A stretch of DNA of 37,230 nucleotides from a virus. A model generated the notes under the pieces. That model was not told the origin of the DNA and searched no databases. It was given only the letters and a program-made list of their open reading frames with translations. Within the stretch, counting starts at the first letter, position 1. Each line of letters starts with the position of its first letter. Made by a program: the position numbers and the translations under genes. The stretch lies in IMG/VR virus record IMGVR_UViG_3300025597_000002. The stretch is one strand, 5' to 3'. This document shows positions 1 through 32,910 of the stretch, one piece after another.

Positions 1-192
1 TCGTACTTGTGCTTGTCGAACTGGTCGGCTGTTGCGTGGTCGTGCTGCTGGTTGTCGAGCTCGTGGTTGAGCTGCTGGTCGGTTGGCTGGTGGTCGTCGT
101 ACTTGTGCTTGTCGAACTGGTCGGCTGTTGCGTGGTCGTGCTGCTGGTTGTCGAGCTCGTGGTTGAGCTGCTGGTCGGTTGGCTGGTGGTCG
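1..192. repeat. 96-bp tandem repeat, two full copies (1-96, 97-192), encoding a 32-aa Thr/Ser/Gln/Pro unit on the minus strand
   Basis: Direct comparison: 1-96 is identical to 97-192, and divergence starts at 196. The period is a multiple of 3. Confidence 0.95.
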
Positions 193-3100
193 TCGAGGAA
201 CTGCTCGTGGTGCTCGAAGGAGGCGGCGGTGGCGGCGGGGGTGGCGGATTGATGCAGCGTGATGGATAGTCGTTGGTCCAGCCCTCCTCCGGATCCCAGA
301 CCGGTCCGGGGCCGGGCGGGGCCTCGCAGACACAACCTTGCGGGCAACCCTCGGTCAAGACCCACACGCGGTACCAGCTGGACCATTGCCAGAGGCAATC
401 GCCGCCGCAAGGCGCTTTCGTGGTGCTGGTGGTCCCCTGGCAGGGTGTCATGTCCCAGGCCCCGGGCGCCCTCGGCAGGCGGCTGGGTGGCGGGCAGCCG
501 GCGCAATTTTCCGAGCAGTTGTACTGATCGAGGATCCAGTGGGTCGCCGTGGCATCGGCCACCCAGCGGCAATCTCCGGTGCAGGGGCAGGTGCGGTTGA
601 TTAGTTCCTGGTCATCGGTGCAAGGGACGGCGAAATGTCCGACATTGACATATCCAGTCTCGTCCCCTGTGCAGTATTTGGGGCAACCACAACCACTGGG
701 ACAACGTCCTCCAGCAGGTACGATCTGTTTCCGTCCGTCTTCTGTCCAAACGATCTCATAGAAACACAGGCCCTGACAGAGGCACGTCGTGGTCGTTTGG
801 TTGGCGGGGATGCAATCCACGATCAGACTCATGTCCGCTGGAAATGGGTTGCCACCCCAACCCCAGTCGCAGGGCGGCGGGGCACATTGGCAACCGGGGG
901 CACAGTGATTTTGCACCCCGTAGCCGTACGGCCATCCAGAGGCCCAAATCTCGCAATACCCGAAGCACGCGCAGGTTGTGGTCGTAGCGGCCTGTTCGGA
1001 GGTCAGGCAACCCACGGAAATGGTCTGACCGGGGAGGACCTGGCGGCAGGGAGCCGGGGCACAGAGGCAGCCAGATTGGCAACTGTTTTGGACCAGTTGC
1101 AATCCCGATTCGGTGGCCGCATAGAGACAGAAGCCCGGGCAGGCGGTCGTGGTTGTCGTCGAACTCGTTGTCGTCGTGGAGGTCGACGTGGAGGTCGACG
1201 TCGATGTACTGGTGGTTGACGAGGTCCCCCGGCAAAGACTCTCCCGGCACTCGCCGACCAGTTCGCCATCGACAGGCGGCGGGGCGCAGGGGCATTCCGG
1301 CGGGCAATTCCCCCCGCCCCAGGCCGAGCCGTCCCAACTGACGATGCAGGGGGAGCCGCAGCCGGGTGTCGTTGAGGTCGGCGGTCGGACCGGCGGCGGG
1401 ACGGGCGGCGGGCAGTCGTAGGGCCAGGTCGTGGTCGTACTGACGCAGGTGCAGCGGCAGGGGGTGAAGGCCCGGTCGTCGCAGGTTGGATCGGCGGGGA
1501 GTTCGCTCGGCCGGTCGCAACCGCAGGCGATGCAGGCCGATCCATCAGGGCAGGGGCAGTTCCAGAGGCGGGAGCAATCGTAGGAGACGAGCAGCCACTT
1601 TTGCAGATCGACACTCCAGATCCACTGGCAGCCACCGCTACAGGGGATGCAGCCGACCTGGGTCGTTGTAGTTCCCGTACAGGCGGTGTGGGCCCGATCG
1701 CACTGATCCTCCGGCGGCCGATCCGGATAGGGGCACATGCACTGCGGACAGCAGTCGTGCTGGTAGAGGACCCAGGTCAAGGCCCCGCCCCAGCCGAGGA
1801 CCGCCTTCCAACCGCAACCGATGCAGCCTCTTTCGTCTGCCTCATCGGGACAGCAACAGGCCGGGGTGGTGCTCGTCGAACTCGTAATTGAGCCATCCGG
1901 GTTGGGGTTACACGGATGACCGGGCGGCCAGAGATTGACCCAGGAACTGGTCGTCGTCGGATCGCCGGTCGTCGTGCTCCCGCACTGCGGTGGGCTGGTC
2001 GGCTCATCCTGCGGGATGCAGTACGTTCTGGCGTACTGGCAATCCCCGCCCCCGCAAAATCCCGGATCAGCGCAGAGGCAACCGTCGCTGCAATCACTCT
2101 CGGAGAGCGTCCAGGCCAGATTCTCTTCGTCCCACTCCCAGAGGCAGCTTCCGGAACAGGGGGCGGTCGTGGTCGTGACGCAGGGGACGGTGATTTCCCA
2201 GTCGTCCTCGTCCCGGCAACGGGAGGGGGCCTCGAGGCACTGGCAACCTTCGGGGCAGGTGTCTTCCAGCAGACTGAGCTGGCCGTGATCGCACTTCCAG
2301 CGGCAGGTGCAGGGGTCACATTGCGGGTCCTTAGGCCAGGGATCACCGATCCCACCCGAGGGCGGCCGGGTGCTGCTCGTGGACGTGGTGGCCAAGACAT
2401 CCCGACAGGTGAGCTGGTATTCGGTCGGTTCCACCCAGCGGTGGAAGGGGGCGATCGTCACCAGGCCCCGTTCGAGATCGGTTTCGATCCAGTCGATGTC
2501 CGAGAAGAAGCCCCAGTTTCCACGATCGGGAACGACCACCGCCGGTCCCACGGATGGCCGTGCCCGGGCACGGAGGCTTGTGATCCGCTGGGCGATCGCC
2601 CGGGCGCAGGCCTCGGTCAGATTACAGGCGGAGTCTCGGTACCACCGCTCGCCGACGGTCGGTTCCTCCTCGTCGGTCTCTCGGAAATCGCGGATCTGCC
2701 AGTTCTGGAGCTGGCCCTTGCGGCAGGTGGGATAAGTGAGATAGAGCCGCTTTAGTTTGGGCAAATGTTCGGCCTGGAGATTAGCCCGTCCCGAAAGGAC
2801 CGTGTAGCCGGCCCGATCTTTCTTGTTTTCCTCATCGAAGAGGGGAACTTTGGTGAGATAGATCGTGAACTTGGCGGAGTCAAGGGACTGGTCGATGAAG
2901 CCGGCCACGGTGTAGCCGAGGCTGGCCGCGACGGCATCGAGGAGGACGGTCGCCGGTTGGCCGGGTGTCTCCCAGGCCTCCGGATCGGGATAGATCGGCG
3001 GGAGCGTGGTCGTTGTCGATGTGGAGGTCGTGGACGAGGTCGAGCTGGTCGAGGTGGAACTACTCGTCGTGGAGCTGCTGGTGCTCGTCGTTTTCGGCAG

Positions 3101-3850
3101 GCATTGGCGGCTGGTGGTGGTCGTCGTGGCCAGCTCGTCGGCCAGTTCCGGGACGAACTCTTTCGCCAGTTCTGGATTTTCGAGGAGATTGTCGAACAAG
3201 ACATAACCATCGTCGTCCACGACGAACGCGATCTCGGCGTGGAGGGCCTGCTGGATGGCGATGAGGATCTCTTTCCAGCCGGCGGGTTGGCGGAGGGGGA
3301 TATGGACAAACTGCCAGAAATATCGCGGGTCGACGAGGACCAAGAGGTACAGATCCTCATGTCCTGGGAGCGTTGTCGTCGTCTCCTCGTCAAGGCGACC
3401 CACGGCCGAGACGGGCAGGATGTCGATCGGCCGGCAGAGCAGGCTGCGATATCCCTCGCGATCGTCGGTGCGGAGAAAGAAGAAGAGGTCCTCGTCGAGA
3501 TGCTGATAGAGTCGCCGGGCATCGCTCCCCGTCACGAGGACGAGGGCCACGCCGAAGCGGGTCGCCCCGCTGGGGAGCCAGATCATGTTCAACTCCCATT
3601 GCGGGGGGAGGGCCTGGGCCCACCGCCACTGCGACCAACCGCCGAGGGGCGTCGGCTTCGTGGCCTGGGGAAAGAGCCGCGAGGGCAAGAACGGGCCTTC
3701 CGGCGGGGCGGTGTAGGGCCAGTGCCCGGCCGGCCAGTGGCGACGGAAATACCGTCGCAGACGGCGGTCGGAGCGGCCGTGCACGATCGGCACGGCGAAT
3801 TGGCCGAGGACCTGGAGGCTGGCTTGGAGGGGTACCGCATGGTCGGTCAT
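1..3850 (-). CDS. Giant tail-fibre-like protein, N-terminal and central part. The ORF leaves the window at nt 1 and continues at the other end. It is not in the supplied ORF track.
   Basis: Manual translation of the minus strand (codon first bases at positions = 1 mod 3). ATG at 3850-3848, 4 nt after the stop of ORF 3854..4342. No stop codon down to nt 1, checked line by line. The protein is coherent (MTDHAVPLQASLQVLGQFAVPIVHGRSD...), with Thr/Ser linkers and repeated Cys/Trp modules. Confidence 0.85.
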   Translation of the reverse strand, partial: MTDHAVPLQASLQVLGQFAVPIVHGRSDRRLRRYFRRHWPAGHWPYTAPPEGPFLPSRLFPQATKPTPLGGWSQWRWAQALPPQWELNMIWLPSGATRFGVALVLVTGSDARRLYQHLDEDLFFFLRTDDREGYRSLLCRPIDILPVSAVGRLDEETTTTLPGHEDLYLLVLVDPRYFWQFVHIPLRQPAGWKEILIAIQQALHAEIAFVVDDDGYVLFDNLLENPELAKEFVPELADELATTTTTSRQCLPKTTSTSSSTTSSSTSTSSTSSTTSTSTTTTLPPIYPDPEAWETPGQPATVLLDAVAASLGYTVAGFIDQSLDSAKFTIYLTKVPLFDEENKKDRAGYTVLSGRANLQAEHLPKLKRLYLTYPTCRKGQLQNWQIRDFRETDEEEPTVGERWYRDSACNLTEACARAIAQRITSLRARARPSVGPAVVVPDRGNWGFFSDIDWIETDLERGLVTIAPFHRWVEPTEYQLTCRDVLATTSTSSTRPPSGGIGDPWPKDPQCDPCTCRWKCDHGQLSLLEDTCPEGCQCLEAPSRCRDEDDWEITVPCVTTTTAPCSGSCLWEWDEENLAWTLSESDCSDGCLCADPGFCGGGDCQYARTYCIPQDEPTSPPQCGSTTTGDPTTTSSWVNLWPPGHPCNPNPDGSITSSTSTTPACCCPDEADERGCIGCGWKAVLGWGGALTWVLYQHDCCPQCMCPYPDRPPEDQCDRAHTACTGTTTTQVGCIPCSGGCQWIWSVDLQKWLLVSYDCSRLWNCPCPDGSACIACGCDRPSELPADPTCDDRAFTPCRCTCVSTTTTWPYDCPPPVPPPVRPPTSTTPGCGSPCIVSWDGSAWGGGNCPPECPCAPPPVDGELVGECRESLCRGTSSTTSTSTSTSTSTSTTTTSSTTTTTACPGFCLYAATESGLQLVQNSCQSGCLCAPAPCRQVLPGQTISVGCLTSEQAATTTTCACFGYCEIWASGWPYGYGVQNHCAPGCQCAPPPCDWGWGGNPFPADMSLIVDCIPANQTTTTCLCQGLCFYEIVWTEDGRKQIVPAGGRCPSGCGCPKYCTGDETGYVNVGHFAVPCTDDQELINRTCPCTGDCRWVADATATHWILDQYNCSENCAGCPPPSRLPRAPGAWDMTPCQGTTSTTKAPCGGDCLWQWSSWYRVWVLTEGCPQGCVCEAPPGPGPVWDPEEGWTNDYPSRCINPPPPPPPPPPSSTTSSSSTTTSQPTSSSTTSSTTSSTTTQQPTSSTSTSTTTTSQPTSSSTTSSTTSSTTTQQPTSSTSTST

Positions 3851-3853
3851 GGC

Positions 3854-4342
3854 TCACTCCAAGCTCCAATCGAATTCCACCAAAAACTCCACGGCAAAGC
3901 TGGCATATTCGATCTCGCCCCGGTTGCCGCGAAGCCACACGAGCGGCGTGGCGCTTGTGGCCGCGATCGTGCCGCGGAGGTTCCAGGCCGGGTTGTCCTG
4001 TCCCACCAGGGCCCGCAGCACCTTCTCTTTCCAGGCGAACATCCCGTCATCGGCATCGAGCAGGCGGACCTCATCCTGTCCCGGCCGATCCCGGCTGATT
4101 CTCAGAAAAAGCCGCACCCGGAAGCCCCAACGTTCGCAGACGTTGCCCGGGGTTTGTTCGTCGATGATGAACTGGCTTCCCAGCGGACTGAGGACGCAAA
4201 AGGTCGGATGCGGCGGGATGCGGGCCGGGGCCAGATCGTCGGAAGCCAGAAAGCAGGCCTCGGGCCCCAGTCCCAGACCGTTGCGGAGCAGGCCGAGGAT
4301 CCAACTGAGAATGTCTTGCGGTTTGGTATCGACGCGACTCAT
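3854..4342 (-). CDS. Hypothetical virion/tail protein (162 aa)
   Basis: ORF track. ATGA overlap with the upstream gene at 4339-4342. Lies between the tail-tip gene and the fibre gene. No recognised motif. Confidence 0.55.
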   Translation of the reverse strand: MSRVDTKPQDILSWILGLLRNGLGLGPEACFLASDDLAPARIPPHPTFCVLSPLGSQFIIDEQTPGNVCERWGFRVRLFLRISRDRPGQDEVRLLDADDGMFAWKEKVLRALVGQDNPAWNLRGTIAATSATPLVWLRGNRGEIEYASFAVEFLVEFDWSLE

Positions 4343-6228
4343 AAGGCCCTAACCTCCCCGTGGCTTTCCAGGCTCAAGGATTGGATCGGCGTCCAACCCG
4401 GCGCATCGTCCTTGATGTGGGGCAGGCGGCCGACCGGCCAGGCCGCGGCAGTCTCATCGCTCGGCGGCAGGCGATCCAGGGCATAGCGATAATAGGCCCG
4501 GATGCGATAAATGAGTTCGTCGCCCATCGGGGACGTCACGGGTGGGAGCAGCTCCACATTCCAATCGAGGAGAAAGCCGCGGACACCGTTGGGGTCTTCG
4601 TAGTCGATCGGGGCGGGAATCTTCGGCATCTCGCCATAGCGCTCGGCGTCGAAGACGATCCGCCGTTCGGCCTTTCCGGCCCCCAATTTGACCACAACGG
4701 CCGTTGTTCCGTCGTCTGCCACTCGCGATCGTTCCAGGTGGCCCCGCCCCTTGCGGATCCTGTAGACACTCTTCATCCGGGCATAGGTGTAGTGGGCCTG
4801 CCGGTGCTCGTCCGACCACTTGCTCTCGTTCTCTCCGGCCGGCTCGGGGACCTCCTCCACCCGCTGGACGAGCGTCTCGGGTTGCTCGGGCCGGAGCGTC
4901 TCATCCGGGACCCCGGCCGGGGCCGGCCACCAGCCGGTGGCATGCCAGGGATGATAGGGCCGCTGCAGGTAGCACTGGAAGATCGCCACGGCCGCCGGAT
5001 CACGCTGGTCGCCCCAGGTGTTATAGCCGTACGGGGCCGGCATCCAGGAGAGATTGGGATCATAACGGTCAAAGGGTGGATCGCCGGCGGCGGGGATCGG
5101 CCACGGCTCGAGGCCCTTCAGGTCATGGCCGATGTTGAAGACCTCATCGAAAAAGTTCTGGACCTTGACCTGGTCCCCCGGCGGTGTGTATTGATACTCG
5201 AGGTTGATCTGGACCTCATTCAGTTCACCGATGTTTTCACTCAGTTCGCAATTGATGGGAAGCCAAGTGTACTTGGCCAGTTCCTGCCGCTTCTTCAAAA
5301 ATCCGGTGAGGGCGTCCACGATCTGGACCGCCCGCACAAAGAGGACCCGGCGTGAGACGTGGGGCGGCCCCAACAGCCGCACTTGACAAAGCCCACCGAA
5401 TTGCGTCCCCATCTGGGTCCGCTTACTGTTGCGGACCTCCATCTTGGTGGCCGGCCAAGGGGCCGCGGTGTGGACCTGCCGGTCCACCACTTCATAGTCG
5501 GCGGAAAGCCCATCCTCTTTGACGGCGTAGCGGAGCCGCTGCCGCCTAAAGCCCGCCTCGAGGGCCGGGACCATCAGCCAGCGGTAATCGTAGCCCAGTT
5601 GGGCCACCGGCTTGGAGAGCCTCAGACTGCCGCGGATCGTCCGCGTCAAGAAGAAATTCTCATCGAGTTCTTCTTCCACCGCCCAGCGGTTATCGAGGAC
5701 GACGCCGAGGACCCCCTGACCCTGTTCCAAGTGGGAAGGGCGGTCGGGCGTGCTGGGAAGTTCGAGCTTCTGGCACTGGACCTGCCAACTGACCTTCATC
5801 GCGCGCGTCCCGATCGCCCCGATGATTTCTAGACTGAGCGGCTGCGGGCCATGCGCTAGATCCCGATCCGGATCGTCCGGATTCTCGATCGCAGGGACAC
5901 AGCGAAAGACGGTGGCCGATCCCACGGCCCCATTGGGCTGCTCAATGAGTTGCTCGACAACCAAGGGATGCCGCGGGTCCATGAGGGCCTGACGGGCGTC
6001 CAGCCAGATGTCATGTTTGCTGTGCGGGACGAGCGTCTGGCAGAAGACGTTGGGGCTCTTCCCCTCGTATCCGCTGTAACTGGCCAGGTCAGTGATGACG
6101 CCTTCGAAGGTCATCGTGAAACGCGAATACCAGGGGTCGCTTTGGGTGGGGTCGTAGATCACCTCCTGGCGGAAGGCCTTCGTAAGGACGTTTTTCAAAA
6201 CGATCTTATTGTAGGTGACAATGATCAT
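4339..6228 (-). CDS. Tail tip/baseplate-type structural protein (629 aa), called by position only
   Basis: ORF track. It immediately follows the tape measure gene with a 4-nt overlap. No family recognised. Confidence 0.55.
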   Translation of the reverse strand: MIIVTYNKIVLKNVLTKAFRQEVIYDPTQSDPWYSRFTMTFEGVITDLASYSGYEGKSPNVFCQTLVPHSKHDIWLDARQALMDPRHPLVVEQLIEQPNGAVGSATVFRCVPAIENPDDPDRDLAHGPQPLSLEIIGAIGTRAMKVSWQVQCQKLELPSTPDRPSHLEQGQGVLGVVLDNRWAVEEELDENFFLTRTIRGSLRLSKPVAQLGYDYRWLMVPALEAGFRRQRLRYAVKEDGLSADYEVVDRQVHTAAPWPATKMEVRNSKRTQMGTQFGGLCQVRLLGPPHVSRRVLFVRAVQIVDALTGFLKKRQELAKYTWLPINCELSENIGELNEVQINLEYQYTPPGDQVKVQNFFDEVFNIGHDLKGLEPWPIPAAGDPPFDRYDPNLSWMPAPYGYNTWGDQRDPAAVAIFQCYLQRPYHPWHATGWWPAPAGVPDETLRPEQPETLVQRVEEVPEPAGENESKWSDEHRQAHYTYARMKSVYRIRKGRGHLERSRVADDGTTAVVVKLGAGKAERRIVFDAERYGEMPKIPAPIDYEDPNGVRGFLLDWNVELLPPVTSPMGDELIYRIRAYYRYALDRLPPSDETAAAWPVGRLPHIKDDAPGWTPIQSLSLESHGEVRAL

Positions 6229-8363: not shown

Positions 8364-9938
8364 CTAGCTCAAAAGACTGTCTGGAATGAGAGTGCTGCCG
8401 CTTGTCGGCAGCGGCCGGTCGACAAGCTCGGGCCAGCGGAGGAAGCGGGCCAGCGTCGTCTCCCAGACCCCGGCCAGGTTGTTGCTGATCGCAACCGTCC
8501 AGCGATCGTTGAAGAATGGTTTCCAGCCGGAGGCCGCGGCCAACCAGGGACCGCCGTTATAAAGCCGCGTCCCGTCCACCAACACCAGTTCGTCAATCCC
8601 CACCGCCTCACCATCGTTGATCGCCGTCGAGGCCTGGATGACGAAGGTCACTGGGCCACTGTAGTCAACCGGCAGGCGAAACGCACCGCTGACACCCGTA
8701 TGGGAGCTTGAGGAAACACTCGTTAGGTTCACGCTGATGCGGTTGACCGTCCCGGCCGAATCGCTCAAAGCCGATTCGTTTACGGAGCGGCGGAGCTCGA
8801 AGCGGATTTCGCCGGTGGCCGAAGACGATTTCCGCATCCGGGCAAAAAGGAAATAGGGCCGCGCTGGGGCGAGGTCGATCGACTGATAAAGGAGGCTTTG
8901 CTCCGTCCCGTTGCCCACCAGCTTGAGGCTCCGCCCGCGATAGGAAACTACGTCCCCAGGCTGCGTCGTGGTGACACTCACCTGGGGACTCGTCCCGCCC
9001 GTCAAGCGGTTAATCACACCCAGTTGGCTGATGTCGCCGGCGGTTCCCTCAAACGTCAGCGCCCAGGGATTCGTCCCGCTGACTGTCACGGCCTCCAGCC
9101 CCGGGATTGTGCGAAGGGCGGTTCGGATCTCCGCCGCTGTCGGATTGTAACCGATCTGGGCGGTTTGCCAGGTGCGACCTGAAGGATCCGTCCAAGTGAG
9201 GATGAAATATCCGCCGGTGGGGCCACCGGAGAGCGTTAGCTCCTGGACTTCGGGGCTGGTGACTCGGATCGTTTGGCCTGCCGTTCCGGTATGAATCGTC
9301 CAGCCTTGGGGTTGGTCCGTGGCGGCCAGAGATTCGAAACCGGCATTCTGCAAACGCGACTGGTCGACCGATTGAGGCAGGACGGTCAAATAGACTCCCG
9401 AGCCGCCCGGCCAGGTTCGGTCCGTGCGGACCTTGATCGGTTGTCCGATGACCGTCAGGCCCCGCTCGCCGGCCACCACCTGCCAGCTCTCAGGATAGCA
9501 CCAGGCCGCCTCACCGCGGGCATTCTTCAGATCGACCGCCAGGATGACGTCCCCTTGATTGCCAGAGGCCGGCGTGATCGTGGACCCTTGGGTGGAACTG
9601 GTGAAGTAGTAGCCACCCGCCGCCAAGTCCGAATGGACCTGCTGGAGGGCCTCGGCCTGGCTGCGGTAGGGCAGGCCCTGTTCCAGGATGTAGCGGCGGA
9701 TGAGCTTTTGCGCCACCGTGGCGATCTGGTTCTGCAAGCCCCCCCCCGCCGATTCCCAACTCGTCTCCGCCGAGAGGACCGGATCAGCCTCCGGACAGAG
9801 ATCGAGAACCTCCTGGAGGGCCGTCAACTTCGTCTGCACCGACCCGCCGCGGGCCGTGTCGATGCTGCGGGAGAGGGCAAAAAGCTTGCCCAACAAGTTG
9901 AAAAGACCGCTGTCATCAGCCGTTGTGTAGAGGTCCAT
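8364..9938 (-). CDS. Beta-rich structural protein (524 aa); first gene of the tail transcription unit, function unassigned
   Basis: ORF track. Thr/Ser/Gly-rich sequence with strand-like segments. Located upstream of the chaperone genes. Confidence 0.5.
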   Translation of the reverse strand: MDLYTTADDSGLFNLLGKLFALSRSIDTARGGSVQTKLTALQEVLDLCPEADPVLSAETSWESAGGGLQNQIATVAQKLIRRYILEQGLPYRSQAEALQQVHSDLAAGGYYFTSSTQGSTITPASGNQGDVILAVDLKNARGEAAWCYPESWQVVAGERGLTVIGQPIKVRTDRTWPGGSGVYLTVLPQSVDQSRLQNAGFESLAATDQPQGWTIHTGTAGQTIRVTSPEVQELTLSGGPTGGYFILTWTDPSGRTWQTAQIGYNPTAAEIRTALRTIPGLEAVTVSGTNPWALTFEGTAGDISQLGVINRLTGGTSPQVSVTTTQPGDVVSYRGRSLKLVGNGTEQSLLYQSIDLAPARPYFLFARMRKSSSATGEIRFELRRSVNESALSDSAGTVNRISVNLTSVSSSSHTGVSGAFRLPVDYSGPVTFVIQASTAINDGEAVGIDELVLVDGTRLYNGGPWLAAASGWKPFFNDRWTVAISNNLAGVWETTLARFLRWPELVDRPLPTSGSTLIPDSLLS

Positions 9939-11680: not shown

Positions 11681-13162
11681 CTAGGTCTCATTCGGTACCG
11701 CCTCGAAGGAAGGAGGCGGCCCGGTTGGCCCGCCCATCTCCTGGCCGGGGAGGGGCGACTGCCGATAGGCCGGATTCTGGAGGAATTCCTCCTCATCGGA
11801 CGGCGGCGAGAGGTTCAAGAGATCCCGCAGCTCCGCCGCCTTGATCTTGAGGCCCATATCGAAGGCCACGCGGAGGCCCTCCAGGCGTTCCCTCGTGTCA
11901 TCCTTTTCCAGTTCGATCACCAGGCGGAAGGCGGTCGGGTCGAGATGCGGCCAGTTCCAGACCACCAGCCGCCGCACGAGCTGTTCGCTGAGTGTCTCCT
12001 GGAGATTGATCGCGTCGTAGCCGACGATCTGGAGGAAGGTGTCCAGGTGGATCGAGGCCAAATTCGAGCCCAGCCCGGTGGCATGGGCCTCGGTGGTCAA
12101 AGTTTGCCCCAAGATATACCGCTTGATTTGGTGCCCGAAGAAGTCCGTCAAGATTTCTTTGAGGACCTGGGCCCCGGCCATCGAGGGTTCGATCCGCTCC
12201 ACACCGAAGGCCGCCCCTTCCACCCCCGGCGGACGCGGAATCAAGAGGATGTTTTTCCCCGGGCCGACCCGCTCGGTGGCGGCCTGTTTCATCTCCTCCC
12301 GGCCCTGCGGGTTGCCGGACGGATAGTACCAGAGCTCGATCCCGAAGGCCGACCGCTCCAGGAATTCCATTAGCCAGGCCAGGGCCTCCTGCCGCTGGTA
12401 CCAGGTCCAGTAAATCCGGTCGCGGATCCCGACGCCGAAGATCTTGGCGGCATTGCGGGGCTCTTCATACTCTCCGTCCTCGATGTAATGGCGATGGACA
12501 ACGAGGAGCTCTTTCGTTCCCGGCGGCGGAAAATACGCCCACCCATAATCGGTACTTTCAATAAAGCGGCGATGCTCCTCCCGCCAGCGGTTGAGGGGGG
12601 CACTCAGTCCCGTTCCACCGCCCACCCGCAGGCCGATCCCATCGAGGACCGACGAGGCGTCGGCATCGATCTTCCAGACCAATTTGTCGCCGTGGATGGG
12701 CATCCACGAATTGACCACGACGAGCTTTTTCCCATCGATCCAGTCCCAGGCATAGCGATTGGCCACGGCATAGCGGCCAAACCAGATGGCGTGGAGGAGA
12801 TTTTCCCGGTACTGCATGAAGCGGGGGATCCGCCGACAGATCGTTTCCAGCAGGTCGCGGGCCTGGGTGTACTCCGGGTCTTGATCCCGCTGGCACTCGA
12901 TCCGCCAATCGAGGAGGGCGACGGCCCGCTGGCGGAGCTCGACGCACTCCATGATCGAGGCGTCCGCCCGCATCAAGACGGCATGCTGGCGGGCCCGACG
13001 GAGGGCCTGATCGGAGGGCCAATAGACGCGGGCCGCCCCGCCGCCGAAGAGACTGATGAAACCGGCCCCATGCGGGACCAAAGGCTGCCCCATCCCCGGG
13101 GGCATCCCCGGGAGTTCATGGACCCCCTGCGTATCGACCAGATAGAGCGTATCCCCAGGCAT
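11681..13162 (-). CDS. Portal protein, DUF935 / Mu gp29-like (493 aa)
   Basis: Motif pattern LRQRAVALLDWRIE...LLHAIWFGRYAV and ILGQTLTTEAHATGLGSNLASIHLDTF, as in Mu-type portals. The start is 6 nt after the upstream stop. Confidence 0.7.
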   Translation of the reverse strand: MPGDTLYLVDTQGVHELPGMPPGMGQPLVPHGAGFISLFGGGAARVYWPSDQALRRARQHAVLMRADASIMECVELRQRAVALLDWRIECQRDQDPEYTQARDLLETICRRIPRFMQYRENLLHAIWFGRYAVANRYAWDWIDGKKLVVVNSWMPIHGDKLVWKIDADASSVLDGIGLRVGGGTGLSAPLNRWREEHRRFIESTDYGWAYFPPPGTKELLVVHRHYIEDGEYEEPRNAAKIFGVGIRDRIYWTWYQRQEALAWLMEFLERSAFGIELWYYPSGNPQGREEMKQAATERVGPGKNILLIPRPPGVEGAAFGVERIEPSMAGAQVLKEILTDFFGHQIKRYILGQTLTTEAHATGLGSNLASIHLDTFLQIVGYDAINLQETLSEQLVRRLVVWNWPHLDPTAFRLVIELEKDDTRERLEGLRVAFDMGLKIKAAELRDLLNLSPPSDEEEFLQNPAYRQSPLPGQEMGGPTGPPPSFEAVPNET

Positions 13163-17031: not shown

Positions 17032-18171
17032 TTAATCAAGCCCCAAGAGCGGTCGCAACCCCGGCCGGGCCGGCTTCACGACCTTGAAGACCTGGACGAC
17101 CTCGAAGGGCAATTTCGAGGTGATCCACTGGCCTTCATGAAACACAGTTCGAGGCCGAAAAACCTCGGCGATGTATTTCTTGCCGGTCTTCGGCCCACGG
17201 ATCGTGGTCAAGGCCGCCTGCCGCGGCACATACCCGCCCGTGATGCCGGCCAGGAAGTAGTGCTTCTTGTGCCCAGACACGGTGCCCCGTTCGCGGAGAT
17301 TGTCCCAGACCCAATTCCCCTTGGAAGGGGCCTGGAGGAACGCCAAAAACTCCTCCGGCCAGACGTCCCGATAACCGTAAACACTCCCCGGAAAACGGAC
17401 GATCTGCCCCTGACGGACCGTCTCCACCCAGAACCGCACATAGAGGATGTGCTGATCCAGGTCGTAGCCGATGGAATGGACGTTGCTTGAGGCGACCTCG
17501 ACCATCTCCCCGGTCACGATCGGGTGATCGACGGGAAATTCCCGCGGCGGCCCGAACCGCATCGGGACCATGACCGTCCCCGCATCGGGCAGCTTGACCT
17601 CCCGCCGCTCCTCGACCCGCTCCTCGATCTGGGCACTCTTTGCCACGGAGGGGCCCAGCCCAAATTCCGGTTGCCGTAAGAGCAGATCGGCATGCTCCCG
17701 CAAGAAATAGTAGGCCGCCCAGATCGCCCGCTCCCGTTCCTCCTGCGGGAGTTTCATCTCCTTGGGCGGGAGGACCTCAAAACCGAAGGCCCGCAGGAAA
17801 TTCATCGCGTCCAGGGCCGAGAGGCGAAATCCCGCGGCCTCGAAGGGAACTTTGCCCAAGGGGGTGAAAAGCGACTCCAGGAGCGTCCCCACCGGCCCCA
17901 TCGATCGCAGGAACTGTTTGACGAGCGTCCACTCCGAGCGGCCGGCATACCGCTCGATGGCCCCGGCGATCTCCCAGACACTCGTCCCCCGCAGCTCCCG
18001 CAGACCGGCCCCCCGGGCCAACTGTTCCATCAACCGCCACGGATCGGCCACCGGTCGGGTCCGCACCGTCTGGAGGAAAAACCCCAGCGGCGAGCGGCGG
18101 AAACTCTCTTCAAGTTCCCGCTGCAAGGCGACGTCCGCCCGACGAAAGAGTTTTCCGGCGTCAAAGGCCAT
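17032..18171 (-). CDS. Head-module protein with a C-terminal KTSC domain
   Basis: SSNVHSIGYDLDQHILYVRF...GSVYGYRDVWPEEFLAFLQAPSKGNWVWDNLR matches the KTSC pattern. ATG at 18171 with AAGGAG 8 nt upstream. The track start at 18201 is a GTG. Confidence 0.55.
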   Translation of the reverse strand: MAFDAGKLFRRADVALQRELEESFRRSPLGFFLQTVRTRPVADPWRLMEQLARGAGLRELRGTSVWEIAGAIERYAGRSEWTLVKQFLRSMGPVGTLLESLFTPLGKVPFEAAGFRLSALDAMNFLRAFGFEVLPPKEMKLPQEERERAIWAAYYFLREHADLLLRQPEFGLGPSVAKSAQIEERVEERREVKLPDAGTVMVPMRFGPPREFPVDHPIVTGEMVEVASSNVHSIGYDLDQHILYVRFWVETVRQGQIVRFPGSVYGYRDVWPEEFLAFLQAPSKGNWVWDNLRERGTVSGHKKHYFLAGITGGYVPRQAALTTIRGPKTGKKYIAEVFRPRTVFHEGQWITSKLPFEVVQVFKVVKPARPGLRPLLGLD

Positions 18172-18197
18172 TTCAGGTCTCCTTTCCCCCGATCCTA

Positions 18198-19724
18198 TCA
18201 CAGCTCAGGGACGCTTCCGGGACGGAACGTTTCCCGCTCCAGGGCCGAAGGTGGAGCGACCACCGACTGCAAGATCAGCCGCAGGGCCATCTCCAGGGCA
18301 TCCGGGCCGTCGTCATGCTCGGCCAGGGGAAAGTCTTCCAGCTCTTCGACAAGGAGGCGGCAACCGGGATTGCGGCGGAAGCGAAGCTCACGATTGGCCA
18401 GATAGGGTCCGATCCGCCGAATTCGCATGAGCTTATTCTCCGTGTTATGGATCGGCCAGACGGGAATTCGCAATCCCAGCCGAGAGAGGCTTTCCCGCTC
18501 CAGTTGCCGCTCGAGAAAGCCGTGGTACTGGTTGGATTCCACGACCATCCACCGCGGTCGATAGACCTCGTAGAGCTGCAAGGCCCGGCGGATCGTATCC
18601 TCCGGAGTTCTCGGCTGGATGTCGGCATCGACAAACAGCAGCCCCCGGTCCTGCGCCACGCCCACCGCCACGATCGCCGTATCGTCGCCTGGCAGATCGG
18701 CCCGTCCCCGCGACGGATCGATCGCCACCAACCACCAATCGGCCGGCGGCGGCCAGCGGTCTTCTTCGATCCACAGCCAATCGCCAAAGTAGGCCGGCGG
18801 CCACTCCGTCCCGGCCGCCTCCGCCGGGTCCTGTTGGTAGAGGGCGGCAAAGGCCCGCAGGTCCTGCCGCCTCGTCCGCTCCAGGGCCTCGGCATCCAAA
18901 AAGGCCGGCCAAAGGGCCTCCCCGGCGGTTCGTGGATCCTCCGGGTGCCGCCGATCCTCCCTGGCCAAGGCTGGAAGCTCAATCACGTCCCACTGATCGG
19001 CGTCCTCTTGTCGCAACAAGCGCCCGACCAAATCGTCCTTGTGCCAGCGGGTCATGCAGAGGACGATCGCCGCCTCCCGCGACCTCCGCGTGAAAAAATC
19101 CGACGTGTACCACTCCCAAATCTTCTGCCGATAGATCGGGCTTTCCGCCTCTTCGCGGTTCTTGATGGGATCATCGATGATTCCCAAATCAAAGCGAAGG
19201 CCGGTGATGGCACCGCCCACACCGGCCGCCCGGAAATAGCCGCCCTGGGGGAGCTCCCAATAATCGTCGGTCCGCTTGAAGCGGCCCGCCAACCGCCGCT
19301 CCGCCGCCGGTAGGATGACATCCGGAAAGACCGCCCGATAATCGGCCGATTCGATGATCCGCTGGATGTCCCGACTGTGGGCCTCGGCCAACGTCGCCGT
19401 GTGCGTGCAGGCGATGATCCGCGTCTGCCGATTTTTTCCCAAGACCCAGGCCGGAAACCGCCGACACACTAATTCGCTCTTGCCGTGCTGAGGCGGCATA
19501 CAGACGATCAGTCGCCGTAAGTTGCCTGTCACCAACTCCTGGAGTTTGCTGGCCAGCAGGCGATGGTGCCAATTGACCTCGTAATCGGGCTTAGTGAAGA
19601 GCGTGAAGGCTAACAGATCACGGCGGGCCTCTCGCAGGGCCTTTTCCCGCAACAGAAGGGCCAGCCGCTGTTTGTCAATCGCAGATTTTCCGGTAGCGGC
19701 GGATTTCTTCGTCGAGTTCATCAT
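18198..19724 (-). CDS. terL: Terminase large subunit (508 aa)
   Basis: Walker A-like MPPQHGKSE, a DD Walker B-like region (LGIIDDP) and a C-terminal nuclease-type region (VAIDPS...DDTAIV...HDDGPDAL). Lies after TerS. Confidence 0.85.
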   Translation of the reverse strand: MMNSTKKSAATGKSAIDKQRLALLLREKALREARRDLLAFTLFTKPDYEVNWHHRLLASKLQELVTGNLRRLIVCMPPQHGKSELVCRRFPAWVLGKNRQTRIIACTHTATLAEAHSRDIQRIIESADYRAVFPDVILPAAERRLAGRFKRTDDYWELPQGGYFRAAGVGGAITGLRFDLGIIDDPIKNREEAESPIYRQKIWEWYTSDFFTRRSREAAIVLCMTRWHKDDLVGRLLRQEDADQWDVIELPALAREDRRHPEDPRTAGEALWPAFLDAEALERTRRQDLRAFAALYQQDPAEAAGTEWPPAYFGDWLWIEEDRWPPPADWWLVAIDPSRGRADLPGDDTAIVAVGVAQDRGLLFVDADIQPRTPEDTIRRALQLYEVYRPRWMVVESNQYHGFLERQLERESLSRLGLRIPVWPIHNTENKLMRIRRIGPYLANRELRFRRNPGCRLLVEELEDFPLAEHDDGPDALEMALRLILQSVVAPPSALERETFRPGSVPEL

Positions 19725-29931: not shown

Positions 29932-30708
29932 TCACTCAGGATTTTTCGGCGGCCAAAATACCCCCACGACAATCCAGGCCTTCTTCTGGTAAACGTTCCC
30001 TACAAAAAAGTAAGTATCTCTGTTTGGCCCGCACATCTCATCAAGAAATTTTGCTCGCACGTCTTTGAGAGCTTTTTCTTCCCCTTTTTTATCCCGTATT
30101 TTTCGGAAGAGCTGGTAGATTTCCCAGTCGAGAATCGTCTGTTGGTGGCCACGGCAGTTGCTGGCCTCGCAGCGATACCTGTATTTAAATTTCCACGGAA
30201 TCTTTTCCAAAGGCTTTTGGCCGGGGCCAAAGAGTGTGAGTTGTTCAAACAGTTTCTGATACTTAGGCTCCCACGACGGCGAATCTTTTTCGATGACCAG
30301 GTCATGAACGATTTTTGGCTTTACAACGGCGAGAGACTGGCTGAGCGGCCCAGATTTTTGGAGACCGCACATCGTAGCCGGTGGATTGGCTAGCACAATT
30401 TTCTTGCGTGCGGACCAGTCGCGATCTGCGGGAAGATGAGAAACAGTCTCGATAGGTTTATCGGGGTCGGGGCGGTATGATTCCGGGCGTGGGTCATTTG
30501 AATGTTTAACGGCGACGACTTTGATCCATTCGTACTTACGAAACCACTGTGTGTATGGGCGATACCGATAGTTAATAGGGTAAAGGCGAATCCATTTTCC
30601 TTCTTCCGTCATCCCCGCAGTGCAGACAACCTCCTGATGGTGCTGCGATGGACGCGGGTAGGTCTTTACCAGCACAAGTACTTTCAATTCCCGCCAATTC
30701 TGTTCCAT
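29932..30708 (-). CDS. Hypothetical protein (258 aa), partner of the DUF488 gene
   Basis: ORF track. Coherent sequence (KVLVLVKTYPRPSQHHQEVVCTAGMTEEGKWIRLYPINYRY ... CEASNCRGHQQTILDWEIYQLF). GC about 45-50% by eye. Confidence 0.6.
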   Translation of the reverse strand: MEQNWRELKVLVLVKTYPRPSQHHQEVVCTAGMTEEGKWIRLYPINYRYRPYTQWFRKYEWIKVVAVKHSNDPRPESYRPDPDKPIETVSHLPADRDWSARKKIVLANPPATMCGLQKSGPLSQSLAVVKPKIVHDLVIEKDSPSWEPKYQKLFEQLTLFGPGQKPLEKIPWKFKYRYRCEASNCRGHQQTILDWEIYQLFRKIRDKKGEEKALKDVRAKFLDEMCGPNRDTYFFVGNVYQKKAWIVVGVFWPPKNPE

Positions 30709-31198
30709 CCCGGAGCTCCCGAACTGTGATTCCGCTTATGGCATGGATGGACTGCGCGAGGACCCAACGGTGGCAATCCCGCGGGTTCATTTCATAGCAC
30801 AATAACAGGAGATTATAGGTCTTCGCAATCGCAAGAAGGGAGAGCACGGCTTTTTCCGCATTAGGCAAGAGGACGGTTCGATAAAGCGAAAGCAACTCAA
30901 CGCGGCGGCCTGGCAAGTAACTTTTTCTGATGCGAGCAGGAATTCCTAGCTCTGGAAAGTGCAAATATTCCAGACCATTAGCGGAGCACGTTTTGTCCAG
31001 TGATGCTTTGCAAAATTCTCGTCGCCGGGAAAAAGGATTGGCCCGAATATCGATAAGATGCGTAATCTGATTAACACCTATCACCTCGATAAGGTTTGGC
31101 AAGCTCATCCGCTCATATCCGGCTGTGAAGAGTATTCGCGAACTTCGCGTCTCGGAAGATGGTCGTTCGAAGCTGTGATTGATCATGGCGAACAACAT
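30572..31198 (-). CDS. DUF488-family protein (start at 31198 or 31186)
   Basis: ILFTAGYERMSLPNLIEVI, HLIDIRANPFSRR, LLLCYEMNPRDCHRWVLA match the DUF488 pattern. The 45-aa tail overlaps the next gene by 137 nt. Confidence 0.65.
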   Translation of the reverse strand: MLFAMINHSFERPSSETRSSRILFTAGYERMSLPNLIEVIGVNQITHLIDIRANPFSRRREFCKASLDKTCSANGLEYLHFPELGIPARIRKSYLPGRRVELLSLYRTVLLPNAEKAVLSLLAIAKTYNLLLLCYEMNPRDCHRWVLAQSIHAISGITVRELRDGTELAGIESTCAGKDLPASIAAPSGGCLHCGDDGRRKMDSPLPY

Positions 31199-31493
31199 CC
31201 ATGTTTGCCCAAAGTGGGCGACAGTAACGGCACAACACTTCCAGCAAGCGGGCGACATCCGCCTGTGCAAAACTGTAGCACACAGCCACCAACCGCGCAA
31301 TACCACCGTCGGGGGATATCAAGGTAGTGAGCGACGATTCTCGGCAGATCGATGGTCCCCCCAGCAGAAGCCGCGACTCACGGATCGGAATTGCACGCCA
31401 CACAGGGGACATCTAGAATTTGGTGGATTGGGGAAAAGGGAGTTTTGACTAGAGCGGGAGTTCATTCCTGTTTGTTCGCAGGAGATCGCTGAT

Positions 31494-31997
31494 ATGATCA
31501 CCGGAAAAGACAAGTGGGTGCTAAGTGCTCTCGCTATAGCACCTTTGGACCGTATTCGTTTGATGAAGGCGCTCTTCCGCCTATGGTGGCATTCAGGGAA
31601 GTCTATCCCAGATTTTTTTTCATTTAAGCCTTATCTTTACGGGCCGTGGAGTCCTGAGGTCTACGACTCCCTGGAAAGGCTCGAAAAGGAGGGATTCATA
31701 GTTCGGTTGCCTCACCCGGTTCCGGCTTGGTCAAAATATCATCTCACAGACCGTGGAAGACGCGCAATTCAGGGTGTGATTCCAACCATCAATCAATCGC
31801 ATTTGGGTTTGCTGAAAAAGCTGACTCATGAAACAGCCAACCTTGGTTTCTACGAACTCCTGAAACTTGTTTACAATGAGTCCCCTGAGTTTGCCCAAAA
31901 CTCGGTTGTAAGAGAGGTCCTGCTGCATGACACTGATTCTTGCTTTGACGGCGCGGAGTGCCGGGCGGAGTGGGACGCGTTTGTTGACATAAAGTAG
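31494..31997 (+). CDS. Winged-helix protein, YwgA / Panacea(DUF4065)-like by recollection (167 aa)
   Basis: LDRIRLMKALFRLWW...FSFKPYLYGPWSPEVYDSLERLEKEGFIV. AGGAGA SD 10 nt upstream of the ATG. One of very few plus-strand genes. Confidence 0.5.
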   Translation: MITGKDKWVLSALAIAPLDRIRLMKALFRLWWHSGKSIPDFFSFKPYLYGPWSPEVYDSLERLEKEGFIVRLPHPVPAWSKYHLTDRGRRAIQGVIPTINQSHLGLLKKLTHETANLGFYELLKLVYNESPEFAQNSVVREVLLHDTDSCFDGAECRAEWDAFVDIK

Positions 31998-32206
31998 TCG
32001 CGGAACTTTTCGCGCGCCCACTCGGCAAGGTCGTCGTTACCTCTTAACAGCTCGTCCCTGACGCGATCGATGCTGCAGAGGTCTTGCTTTTCGGCGTGTG
32101 TGATTAGTGCCTCCCAAAAACCAGGGGCAAGGTCAAAGGCGTAATATCTTTGCGCCGCTTGGATGAAAACACTGGCATCGAGTAGGAAAGGCACTCGGGG
32201 AATCAT
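31871..32206 (-). pseudogene. DUF4411 (PIN-like) N-terminal remnant, truncated
   Basis: MIPRVPFLLDASVFIQAAQRYYAFDLAPGFWEALI...IDRVRDELLRGNDDLAEWA matches the first ~75 aa of DUF4411. The remainder is unrelated and overlaps the convergent gene. ATGA coupling to ImmA at 32203-32206. Confidence 0.55.
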
Positions 32207-32910
32207 ATTCTGCCTGATAACGCCCGCTGGAGGAAACAATCGAAGGTTTTACCGTAAAGTCCCGTCAGGCGATAGGCCTCCCGATAGAGCAGATCTCCTT
32301 CGAGGACCGCGTGTATGACTGCCATAGCAAAGCTTCGGCCGAGTTTCTGCATTTGCGTGGCATAGAAATTTCCGCCGTGCCGCCTGCTGGTTCGTTCACG
32401 CCCTCGCTCCTGATGCGTTCGGTAAAACTCTGAAAAGTCCTCGCGGTTCATGAAACCCAAGTCCAGGGCTCGCCGAGCGGCGACAATCTTGCTTACCTTG
32501 AAACTGCGGGCCATTACCTGCAGAATATCCCGCGACCCCCCGTGCCGCCGCCACAATTTTGTAAAGTTTTCGCTGGGCACAAGGAACTCCGCGGCGATGC
32601 GGTTGCAGACTTGTTCGGTTCTTTCGTCCGCTGGCTGGAGCTCGCGCAGATCGAAGGCGCTGCTGCTGCCGAGCCATAGATGGGCAAGTTCGTGGGCGAA
32701 GGTGAACATCTGCGCCGCTTTGCTATCGGCGCTGTTGATGAAGATCAGCGGTGCGTAGTCATCAACCATGACAAAACCGCGAAATTCTTCGGGATTTAAC
32801 AGGCGGTGTGTGTCGTTGCCCACGGTGCTGCTGCTGACCACCAAAATACCAGCGCTATCAGCTTTATCCTGGAGGGCGATGATTACTACATCTACGCGCC
32901 TTCCCCTCAA
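32203..32910 (-). CDS. ImmA/IrrE-type zinc metallopeptidase domain; probably the detached C-terminal half of an XRE-ImmA fusion
   Basis: HEXXH in FTFAHELAHLWLG. There is no in-frame ATG near the 5' end (only TTG at 32910), with an in-frame stop at 32956-32958. Confidence 0.65.
   Translation of the reverse strand: MRGRRVDVVIIALQDKADSAGILVVSSSTVGNDTHRLLNPEEFRGFVMVDDYAPLIFINSADSKAAQMFTFAHELAHLWLGSSSAFDLRELQPADERTEQVCNRIAAEFLVPSENFTKLWRRHGGSRDILQVMARSFKVSKIVAARRALDLGFMNREDFSEFYRTHQERGRERTSRRHGGNFYATQMQKLGRSFAMAVIHAVLEGDLLYREAYRLTGLYGKTFDCFLQRALSGRI

Follow-up and report, generated by a model that had tools for sequence, protein, structure and literature searches.

A Cys-rich candidate receptor-binding fibre with a linked glycosyltransferase cassette in a tailed phage of Planctomycetota

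The IMG/VR virus record IMGVR_UViG_3300025597_000002, a stretch of 37,230 nucleotides (nt) analysed here over its whole length and called the window, is a complete tailed-phage genome that carries on its minus strand an unusual gene, referred to below as the target. Its product of 1353 amino acids (aa) is probably a host-recognition fibre of the phage, constructed from a new domain family and accompanied by what is probably a dedicated glycosylation system. Behind an N-terminal domain that is kept among related phages, eleven copies of a compact Cys/Trp module are strung on Thr/Ser-rich spacers, and a gene for a glycosyltransferase (GT) follows immediately. The reading proposed here, to which a probability of roughly 60% is attached, is that the protein forms a tail-tip fibre, either central or at the side, whose Thr/Ser spacers would be O-glycosylated and whose Cys-rich beads would act as adhesive units.

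The minus-strand frame that opens at ATG 3850 contains no stop codon down to nt 1. Nucleotides 1-112 and 37119-37230 form an identical terminal duplication, and when one copy is removed the frame runs in phase around the resulting 37,118-nt circle to a TGA at 36907-36909. A stop codon lies in frame just 5' of ATG 3850, and a GGAG stands 6 nt ahead of this start. The product contains 101 Cys, 172 Thr, 142 Pro, 126 Ser, and 50 Trp, with 193 residues (120 Thr and 73 Ser) falling in Thr/Ser runs of four or more. A preliminary description of the window, made from its letters alone, had proposed this frame, the length of 1353 aa, and about 100 Cys; the open reading frame (ORF) call on the re-circularised sequence agrees, and the frame is also complete on a linear contig of another assembly (L125; related loci and contigs are given by such numbers throughout). 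The positions first reported likewise agree for the Thr/Ser linker (3005-3127), a Pro10 tract (218-247), and three example modules (2063-2158, 314-409, and 36958-37065). The parts of the target are as follows.

1-3850, minus strand: bulk of the target ORF, aa 1-1283; no stop, G+C fraction at third codon positions (GC3) of 0.77, contiguous at 100% identity in L125.
36907-37230, minus strand: C-terminal end of the target ORF; 37119-37230 copies 1-112, and the unique part, 36907-37118, covers the last stretch of the Thr/Ser stalk, module 11, and the stop codon.
3128-3850, minus strand: first half of the N-terminal conserved domain, aa 1-241, with the motifs P-x-GA-x-RF and LYLL-x-LVD-x-RYFW (alignments A2 and A3).
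3005-3127, minus strand: internal poly-Thr/Ser insertion, aa 242-282, absent from most homologues compared.
2390-3004, minus strand: second half of the N-terminal conserved domain, aa 283-487, with the motif LLDAVA-x-S-x-G (alignments).
242-2326, minus strand: modules 1-10, aa 509-1203, each of ~50-65 aa, with Thr-rich spacers of 4-27 residues (hmmsearch).
1-247, minus strand: the Pro10 tract and the start of a Pro/Thr/Ser/Gln stalk of ~100 aa that holds a 96-nt repeat and continues at 37072-37118.
36910-37071, minus strand: module 11, terminal and on the longest stalk, with an independent E-value (i-E) of 1.4e-9; collinear with the last module of the family protein P0001 and of the homologues in L004 and L025.

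A four-part layout had been described at the outset, and its parts stand, except that the two "globular regions" are halves of a single conserved domain of ~450-490 aa, which the alignments show to be split in the target by the Thr/Ser insertion and unbroken in most homologues.

The repeated unit was modelled as a profile hidden Markov model (HMM) from 34 modules taken from five proteins. In the target, the profile picks out exactly 11 modules with significant scores (i-E 2e-7 to 1.5e-18), the number counted by eye before, at aa 509-563, 563-623, 674-734, 735-810, 829-883, 902-960, 960-1024, 1023-1088, 1088-1145, 1146-1203, and 1300-1353. The consensus of ~55 aa reads xxCxGxCxWxW-x6-WxL-x4-CxxxCxCxxP…C…C. 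Six of its Cys (profile positions 3, 7, 25, 29, 31, and 49) are 98-100% conserved across 464 distinct modules of the family, while a seventh, at position 41/42, is present in 62% of them. AlphaFold2, run on module 2 with the 34-module alignment, predicts four β-strands with a mean predicted local distance difference test score (pLDDT) of 90.3 and a predicted template modelling (pTM) score of 0.73. The module thus has a confidently predicted fold without a known relative in the libraries searched. Foldseek returned no match either in the PDB (best E 1.8, TM score ≤0.42) or in the viral structure library BFVD (best E 1.2), the module profile found none among PDB sequences (best E 0.32), PHROGs and NCBIfam gave no module match, and Pfam recognises no family of any kind in the target (to E = 1) or in 70 family members (to E = 0.001); the earlier remark that the module belongs to no familiar family therefore survives these searches. 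Membership in the TSP_1 or EGF families is rejected on the same Pfam results and the missing PDB fold match, membership among carbohydrate-binding modules (CBMs) for want of a sequence or fold match, and membership in the planctomycete YTV wall-protein family because Pfam YTV is not matched at those thresholds. A literature search likewise found no description of the module.

The module defines a rare family. Searched exhaustively with HMMER, 1.84 billion representative proteins include 433 with the module at E ≤1e-3, 149 at ≤1e-10, and 14 at ≤1e-30. These proteins carry 2-16 copies, contain 8.1% Cys on average, and have Thr/Ser runs in nearly all cases; a signal-peptide-like N-terminus is present in only 1 of 151 members. 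Within the target, modules share a mean identity of 33% and at most 45%, whereas their positional counterparts in P0001, L004, and L025 are 39-74% identical to them and largely collinear, with 11 modules likewise in P0001 and L004. Since positional counterparts are closer to each other than the modules within the target are, the array is old and ordered rather than a recent expansion.

The six invariant Cys, together with optional Cys that come in correlated pairs (odds ratio 7-8, p 1e-10 to 2e-15, a pattern that shared ancestry could produce too), favour disulfides as judged from the alignments; cytoplasmic folding, CxnC knuckles round a hairpin, and odd Cys totals would also allow metal sites or inter-chain bonds. 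Disulfide-rich mini-domains of the knottin, CBM1, or hevein-like kind gave no fold or profile match, and their even Cys numbers contrast with the odd totals that prevail here. An alternative that would be compatible with a fibre role is that the modules are not disulfide beads but all-Cys knuckles binding Zn or Fe and assembled in the reducing cytoplasm. Lacking a signal peptide, the target folds in the cytoplasm, and its C-x3-C and C-x3-C-x-C pairs flank a β-hairpin in the manner of a zinc ribbon. A total of 7 Cys per module is the most frequent, and odd totals outnumber even ones among the 464 modules (298 odd, 166 even), a count that depends on how modules are segmented, another segmentation having given 159 even and 153 odd. 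Furthermore, Thermogutta, the genus of the nearest genome match, are thermophiles able to grow anaerobically, a setting in which disulfides form poorly. The Cys motifs themselves speak the other way: their spacing is variable (C-x2-4-C and C-x2-7-C-x-C), a knuckle spacing of 2-7 residues being unusual for metal sites, His makes up a mere 0.9% of residues, the six invariant Cys suit three disulfides, and the optional Cys pair up as extra disulfides would, ancestry aside. Metal-binding knuckles are regarded as unlikely, at something like one chance in a few.

The manner in which its distal part is exchanged links the target to host recognition. At least five unrelated types of C-terminus follow the N-terminal domain among its homologues. 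Arrays of Cys modules follow a domain of the target type in L003, L004/5, L013, L025, and L002, while L009 bears a β-rich repeat protein of 1585 aa, L021 His/Thr-rich repeats, and other loci short C-terminal domains. Homologues from Schlesneria prophages have a poly-Ser/Gly stalk of ~300 residues that ends in a tiny Cys motif; across L026-L032 (Schlesneria and other Planctomycetota) the same N-terminal domain precedes ~300 residues of poly-Ser/Gly and the motif GCVTVVTxVxCxxGxLxVT…C. Conversely, the module array is also found on a second, unrelated N-terminal domain of ~180 aa (type B) in P0002, in P0003 of Bremerella, and in L119. This second domain, searched for with an alignment of four sequences, occurs in at least 105 IMG/VR contigs and bears many other distal parts. 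The target itself is the most diverged structural gene in the comparison with L004, at 43% identity against 54-89% for its neighbours. A kept N-terminal anchor combined with wholesale exchange of the C-terminus is the behaviour of receptor-binding proteins. Minimal module-like tips are present at the ends of some poly-Ser stalks, for example CNTTWIWSCGWQLLESDC in L106 and CLSTWIWSCGWELIESDC in L051, which fits a binding role of the module at the distal end. The type-B fibres with Ser stalks (L093-L118 and L051; e.g. L109:8318-14743) measure 800-914 aa, have Ser-rich acidic stalks of 300-500 residues, and terminate in one minimal Cys/Trp tip, C-x3-WIWSCGW-x-L-x-ESDC.

Immediately downstream of the target, three genes form a cassette where the structural genes give way to the lysogeny genes (an M78 peptidase and a PadR-like regulator).

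35186-36901, minus strand: 571-aa enzyme combining a GT2 domain (PF00535, 1.2e-12), a methyltransferase-like region, and DUF6171 (PF19668, 3.9e-5).
34498-35184, minus strand: second, small GT2-like protein of 228 aa (PF00535, 2.7e-4, below the gathering score); called in L124-L128.
33755-34501, minus strand: 248-aa protein, kept downstream of the GT in module-bearing loci (tblastn) and called as a gene in sister contigs.

The first GT gene starts at ATG 36901, 5 nt past the TGA of the target, a spacing that suggests co-translation with the fibre. The middle region of its product is assigned on a Methyltransf_24 match of the L119 homologue (3e-4) and on weak matches of the profile to O-methyltransferases, whereas the C-terminal DUF6171, at aa ~500-571, is Cys-rich; no description of DUF6171 was found in the literature search. 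A search of PDB sequences with the GT by itself gave nothing useful. The 248-aa protein has no database match and is 41-67% identical by tblastn in L002, L004, L005, and L025 and 29-36% identical in L013, where two copies are present. No credible transmembrane segment occurs in the cassette proteins, the lone hydrophobic window being a core strand of the GT-A fold. A Gtr-type seroconversion cassette was considered and rejected, as membrane-embedded proteins and Gtr Pfam matches are both missing.

Inheritance of the GT was compared over 65 distinct loci with a complete fibre ORF and at least 2.5 kb of downstream DNA. A GT of the window type lies 17-1100 nt downstream in 7 of 7 module-bearing loci (L001, L002, L004, L005, L013, L025, and L119) and in 0 of 58 module-free ones (Fisher p 1.4e-9); more broadly, a GT from a BLAST panel is found within 5 kb downstream of 22 of 25 stalk-bearing fibres and 7 of 40 stalk-less ones (p 1.8e-8), both p-values being carried by about four or five stalk/enzyme pairings among loci that are not phylogenetically independent. 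Because the seven loci include both types of N-terminal domain, the distal array and the GT move together as a cassette; the P0002 contig has the same order of fibre and GT by Pfam. Module-free homologues with long low-complexity stalks have poly-Ser rather than poly-Thr and other enzymes downstream. In L029 (L029:9740-17661), the poly-Ser fibre is followed by a stand-alone DUF6171 protein, two GT9 heptosyltransferase-like proteins, and a cytidylyltransferase. In L051, L109, and their relatives, a fusion of GT25 and sulfotransferase together with a GT2 lies directly downstream of the fibre, and in L048 and L052 a GT fused to a radical-SAM domain follows it.

Several further observations concern these neighbourhoods. 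DUF6171 occurs in two forms, fused to the GT in phages with Thr linkers and stand-alone in phages with poly-Ser stalks (L029:12451-12927 and L030:12340-12702), and both forms adjoin a low-complexity fibre gene. The enzyme set of L029-type loci, which also encode a small Cys/Ser protein downstream of the poly-Ser/Gly fibre, is reminiscent of heptosylated autotransporter adhesins. In L030, a Schlesneria prophage, a 753-aa ORF (L030:12946-15207) just downstream of the fibre and DUF6171 genes ends in a DddA-like double-stranded-DNA deaminase toxin domain (PF14428, 8.5e-11). In L002 (Logan SRR27686863_783), a 12-gene cluster (L002:1333-9153) encoding a GT2, two Methyltransf_24 proteins, radical-SAM/SPASM proteins, and a sulfotransferase-like protein is inserted within the structural operon, immediately ahead of the fibre gene. 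Its products could tailor glycans or possibly introduce peptide cross-links into the Cys-rich fibre.

The same cassette could be read differently, with the target still a fibre but its spacers plain flexible linkers and the GTs directed at a glycan of the host envelope, for seroconversion, superinfection exclusion, or receptor masking. The closest solved relatives of the GT, TarP and TarS, are GlcNAc transferases acting on wall teichoic acid, TarP is of prophage origin, and O-antigen-modifying gtr genes stand beside tailspike genes in P22-like phages. The boundary of structural and lysogeny genes is, moreover, a typical place for accessory genes, and a link between the type of C-terminus and the type of GT would be expected here as well, since both would concern the same receptor. 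Such a division of labour nevertheless sits poorly with the way in which GTs track Ser/Thr stalks (33 of the 40 stalk-less homologues are without a panel GT downstream), with the 5-nt spacing, with enzymes that lack transmembrane segments, unlike those of Gtr-type systems, and with the sugar-tailoring cluster of L002, which is located inside the structural operon. Host-glycan modification is considered improbable, though it is the main rival reading.

The surroundings of the target support its placement at the tail tip. Structural genes run on the minus strand in the order terS, terL (match at E 2e-113), protease-like, scaffold, major capsid, head-tail adaptor, Mu-type portal-like, tail genes, target, and GT genes, with the target as the last gene of the co-directional structural block. 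The N-terminal domain is found in 22 IMG/VR loci, whose capsid, adaptor, 524-aa, and 629-aa proteins are 23-47% identical to those of the window, and up to 95% in L003-L005; on account of these shared proteins, the loci are taken to form one phage clade with the window. The tail-region genes upstream of the target that enter this comparison are listed below.

3854-4342, minus strand: 162-aa protein directly 5' of the target, with a stop-to-ATG gap of 3 nt, kept beside target homologues.
4339-6228, minus strand: 629-aa tail-region protein, kept across the clade, with tblastn identities of 23-95% in most related loci.
8364-9938, minus strand: 524-aa tail-tip protein, kept across the clade; identified with profile A8 against PDB 9d93_Ma and by weak PHROG matches to tail proteins.

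Profile A8 of the 524-aa protein matches PDB 9d93_Ma, the "Tail tip cage, gp23" of mycobacteriophage Bxb1, at E 7.2e-18, and on this basis the region is identified as a siphophage-type tail tip, with the gp23-like gene 4.5 kb upstream of the target. The 629-aa protein has no match in PDB, Pfam, PHROG, or NCBIfam. The preliminary description had placed the ORF last in the tail module, the usual position of a receptor-binding fibre, and the gp23-like neighbour, the kept N-terminus with its exchanged C-terminus, and the strong divergence of the gene all speak for that placement.

Structure prediction adds a further hint at the N-terminus. For the N-terminal domain, AlphaFold2 gives a poor model (pLDDT 49.6), and the top Foldseek matches of this low-confidence model are nearly all hub or tail-tip proteins, including MuSo2 gp44-like proteins, hubs of extracellular contractile injection systems and diffocins, the tips of Bxb1 and Douge, T4 gp27, and VgrG, none of them significant (best E 0.03, TM score ≤0.21). 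The target may accordingly be a fusion of hub and fibre, with an N-terminal domain related to baseplate hub proteins, as far as this model can suggest. By tblastn, the N-terminal 500 aa have no match among 50,697 phage records, and neither those records nor Pfam, PHROGs, NCBIfam, or PDB sequences link the target as a whole to an established family of tail fibres or tailspikes. The sole PHROG match of the N-terminal region, phrog_14018, falls inside the poly-Thr/Ser insertion and was discarded as spurious.

As for the host, a single scan of 185,579 GTDB species genomes recovered the N-terminal domain at 15 loci, all 15 in Planctomycetota (Thermogutta, Schlesneria, Planctomycetaceae, and Pirellulales), and several of these are regarded as integrated prophages because they lie on contigs of 69 kb up to 6.5 Mb. 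The closest, L025, a contig of a Thermogutta metagenome-assembled genome (MAG), encodes a homologue of 1286 aa with 103 Cys and 9 modules. The phage is thus a siphophage-like phage of ~37 kb that infects Planctomycetota, with Thermogutta-like hosts as the nearest genome match, and it is probably temperate. Very little literature on phages of this phylum was found.

The remaining genome has several features of its own. RecT, an IstB-like loader, the M78 peptidase, and a DUF488 protein (30572-31306) are also encoded on the minus strand, and the PadR-like regulator on the opposite one. The region 31494-32910 of the window (L124:9992-11408) resembles a lysogeny switch, with the M78/IrrE-like peptidase (PF06114, 5e-19) and the divergent PadR-like regulator; this neighbourhood also takes in the DUF488 protein and a DUF4411 (PIN-like) gene called in sister contigs, and no integrase was recognised among the ORFs scanned. 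The Mu-type portal-like gene (11681-13162, minus strand; phrog_113, 1.9e-32) follows the capsid and adaptor genes instead of adjoining terL, and the usual portal position after terL is occupied by a 389-aa gene (17032-18201, minus strand) that matches only the unannotated phrog_3292.

It might also be supposed that the target is not a virion protein but a glycosylated, adhesin-like surface or secreted protein encoded by the prophage and useful to the lysogen. Planctomycetes typically have envelope proteins rich in Cys and Pro, and in Bremerella volcania the homologue is chromosomal: in L001 (CP036289, 855-878 kb) the module protein Pan97_07260 is divergent from a 2823-aa protein with rearrangement hotspot (RHS) repeats of the toxin type, and an eight-gene glycosylation island follows. 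This locus may be a domesticated or remnant cassette. Secretion would, on the other hand, be hard to reconcile with the 150 of 151 family members that lack a signal peptide, and the target is co-directional and tightly packed with tail genes, 3 nt from the gene upstream. Both N-terminal domain types occur mainly on viral contigs with capsid and tail genes, and an anchor with a swapped C-terminus is the pattern of virion receptor-binding proteins. A non-virion role is hence very improbable.

The gene itself had been overlooked for reasons that can be traced. As had been proposed initially, it is missing from the ORF list of the window because its frame runs past the window end without meeting a stop, and the plus-strand ORFs listed over the same DNA are shadows, since their GC3 is 0.59-0.65 compared with a gene-like 0.77 in the target frame (terL 0.76, capsid gene 0.83). 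G+C at the other codon positions of the target is 0.55 (GC1) and 0.62 (GC2), the latter far from the ~0.45 of neighbouring genes, and this atypical composition is a likely reason for the missing call on L125. On L125 (JGI Ga0116255_10003524, linear, 21.5 kb), the full 4062-nt ORF is present at L125:1934-5995, at 100% identity, ungapped, and away from the contig ends, but the JGI gene call omits it and reports four small opposite-strand ORFs instead. Thr/Cys/Pro-rich genes of this kind may be systematically missed by gene finders. In L124 (ENA, 37,163 nt), the gene is called, and its 1321-aa product equals that of the window apart from the loss of one 32-aa repeat (aa 1220-1251). In an NCBI MAG copy, the repeat is interrupted by a 100-N scaffold gap, and the downstream GT protein is 100% identical on five contigs of separate assemblies (L124-L128).

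The repeat in question is a 96-nt (32-aa) tandem repeat that spans the junction (37098 through to 195) and, according to Tandem Repeats Finder (period 96), amounts to 2.2 copies in the circularised window. There are likewise 2.2 copies in L125 and 1.2 in L124, and the length of L127 (37,099 nt) implies 1.2, differences that could reflect either assembly collapse or real variation in copy number. A longer version of 1385 aa with one further repeat, offered in the preliminary description as an alternative, is present in none of the assemblies compared and was dropped. That the long ORF is an artefact, a circular contig misjoined through this repeat at whose junction copy numbers differ or a chance open frame in GC-rich DNA, has practically no likelihood and is rejected, given the intact and unsplit ORF at 100% identity on the linear L125, full-length homologues of 1282-1412 aa on linear contigs with the same order of target, GT, and 248-aa gene, the GC3 of a real gene, and the 433 database relatives of the module profile.

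According to the fibre reading, the N-terminal domain would dock the target in the tail tip, and the distal ~850 residues would form a beads-on-a-string fibre of eleven independently folded mini-domains with four β-strands, each pinned by its six invariant Cys and a small Trp/Leu cluster. Thr-rich spacers would join the beads, the last of which would sit on the ~100-residue Pro/Thr/Ser/Gln stalk. The co-translated, soluble 571-aa enzyme would attach sugars, possibly methylated, to the Thr/Ser spacers in the cytoplasm, assisted by the second GT2, and the glycosylated spacers would become stiff, protease-resistant, mucin-like segments. The Cys beads would then serve as units of adhesion and host recognition, stabilised by disulfides formed after release of the virion or by bound metal.

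Several observations weigh against this reading. The model of the N-terminal domain is of low confidence, its hub-like matches being all non-significant; the preponderance of odd Cys counts is a poor fit to a simple all-disulfide domain; the loci behind the statistical association of stalk and enzyme share ancestry; the nearest solved GT relatives, TarP and TarS, modify cell-wall polymers rather than proteins, albeit with a weak match (E 1e-4); and the Bremerella volcania member has an RHS-repeat gene as its neighbour and lacks phage genes within 10 kb, so that the family is not demonstrably carried by phages in every case.

A more far-reaching proposal can be put forward tentatively, at somewhat short of even odds: that array and enzymes form a self-contained, horizontally mobile glyco-fibre cassette in phages of Planctomycetota, whose enzyme builds methylated O-glycans on the fibre in the cytoplasm and would recognise it perhaps through the Cys-rich DUF6171 or through the folded modules. 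If this is true, the target would be the first case of a bacteriophage receptor-binding fibre that is mucin-like and glycosylated by enzymes, parallel systems would exist in which poly-Ser stalks are paired with heptosyl-, GT25/sulfo-, or radical-SAM-linked transferases, and DUF6171 would gain its first function, as a substrate-targeting module of protein glycosyltransferases.

The significance of the target extends in several directions. Recognition of Planctomycetota, whose envelope is unusually rich in protein and glycan, by phages is almost unstudied, and the target provides a concrete candidate for a whole clade. The module constitutes a new, compact domain of ~55 aa with six Cys, present in 433 protein clusters and without a relative in Pfam, the PDB, or the viral structure library. 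A rule also emerges by which fibres with Ser/Thr stalks come with their own sugar-adding or tailoring enzymes, matched to the type of stalk; if confirmed, virion glycosylation would extend from the capsids of mycobacteriophages to receptor-binding fibres. Finally, the failure of a production gene caller to report a 4-kb gene on a contig that holds it complete exposes a blind spot of annotation.

Among known systems, the hub or central fibre of siphophages (Bxb1, Douge, and the lambda gpJ type) offers a parallel in role, in that it is encoded at the end of the tail module and combines a kept N-terminal anchor with a variable distal part. In Douge, it is the central fibres that touch the cell first (PMC13033339). 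The likeness of the N-terminal model of the target to hub proteins is weak and in no case significant, and a sequence relationship is not detectable; the distal part of the target, moreover, consists of Cys-rich mini-domains on low-complexity Thr spacers and not of a β-helical or coiled fibre.

To our knowledge, mycobacteriophages provide the only established case of self-glycosylation by a phage. As summarised in PMC11256854, which cites Freeman et al. 2023, virions of Che8 and its relatives are O-glycosylated by phage-encoded GTs, and the glycosylated proteins include the major capsid protein. Both systems have phage GT genes near structural genes, in the present case a GT2 directly behind the fibre gene. 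They differ in the substrate, which includes the major capsid protein in mycobacteriophages and is presumably a tail fibre with mucin-like Thr spacers here, and in the enzyme, here a predicted fusion of GT2, methyltransferase-like region, and DUF6171.

Thrombospondin type-1 and EGF repeats, extracellular modules of eukaryotes, are β-rich tandem units of ~40-60 residues with six conserved Cys that dedicated glycosyltransferases modify once they have folded, and the strands of the thrombospondin repeats are rich in Trp. The resemblance of the target modules to them is by analogy only, as the spacing of Cys differs and the target is viral and cytoplasmic. In fungal CBM1 cellulases and in mucins, small modules rich in Cys and aromatic residues are joined by Thr/Ser/Pro linkers that glycosylation stiffens and protects; those proteins are secreted, whereas the target has neither a signal peptide nor a CBM match.

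The disordered Ser/Thr-rich regions of streptococcal proteins are O-glycosylated (PMC12041528). Serine-rich-repeat adhesins of Gram-positive bacteria share with the target their low-complexity Ser/Thr regions and nearby dedicated enzymes, and the poly-Ser fibres of L029 and L106 are closer to them still; they are, however, membrane or wall proteins of the host that rely on extracytoplasmic glycosylation or accessory Sec export and on other enzyme families. In the planctomycete Kuenenia, the S-layer protein Kustd1514, which has no sequence similarity to the target, carries heavily methylated O-glycans (PMC5088730), a likeness that finds its counterpart in the methyltransferase-like domain of the phage enzyme.

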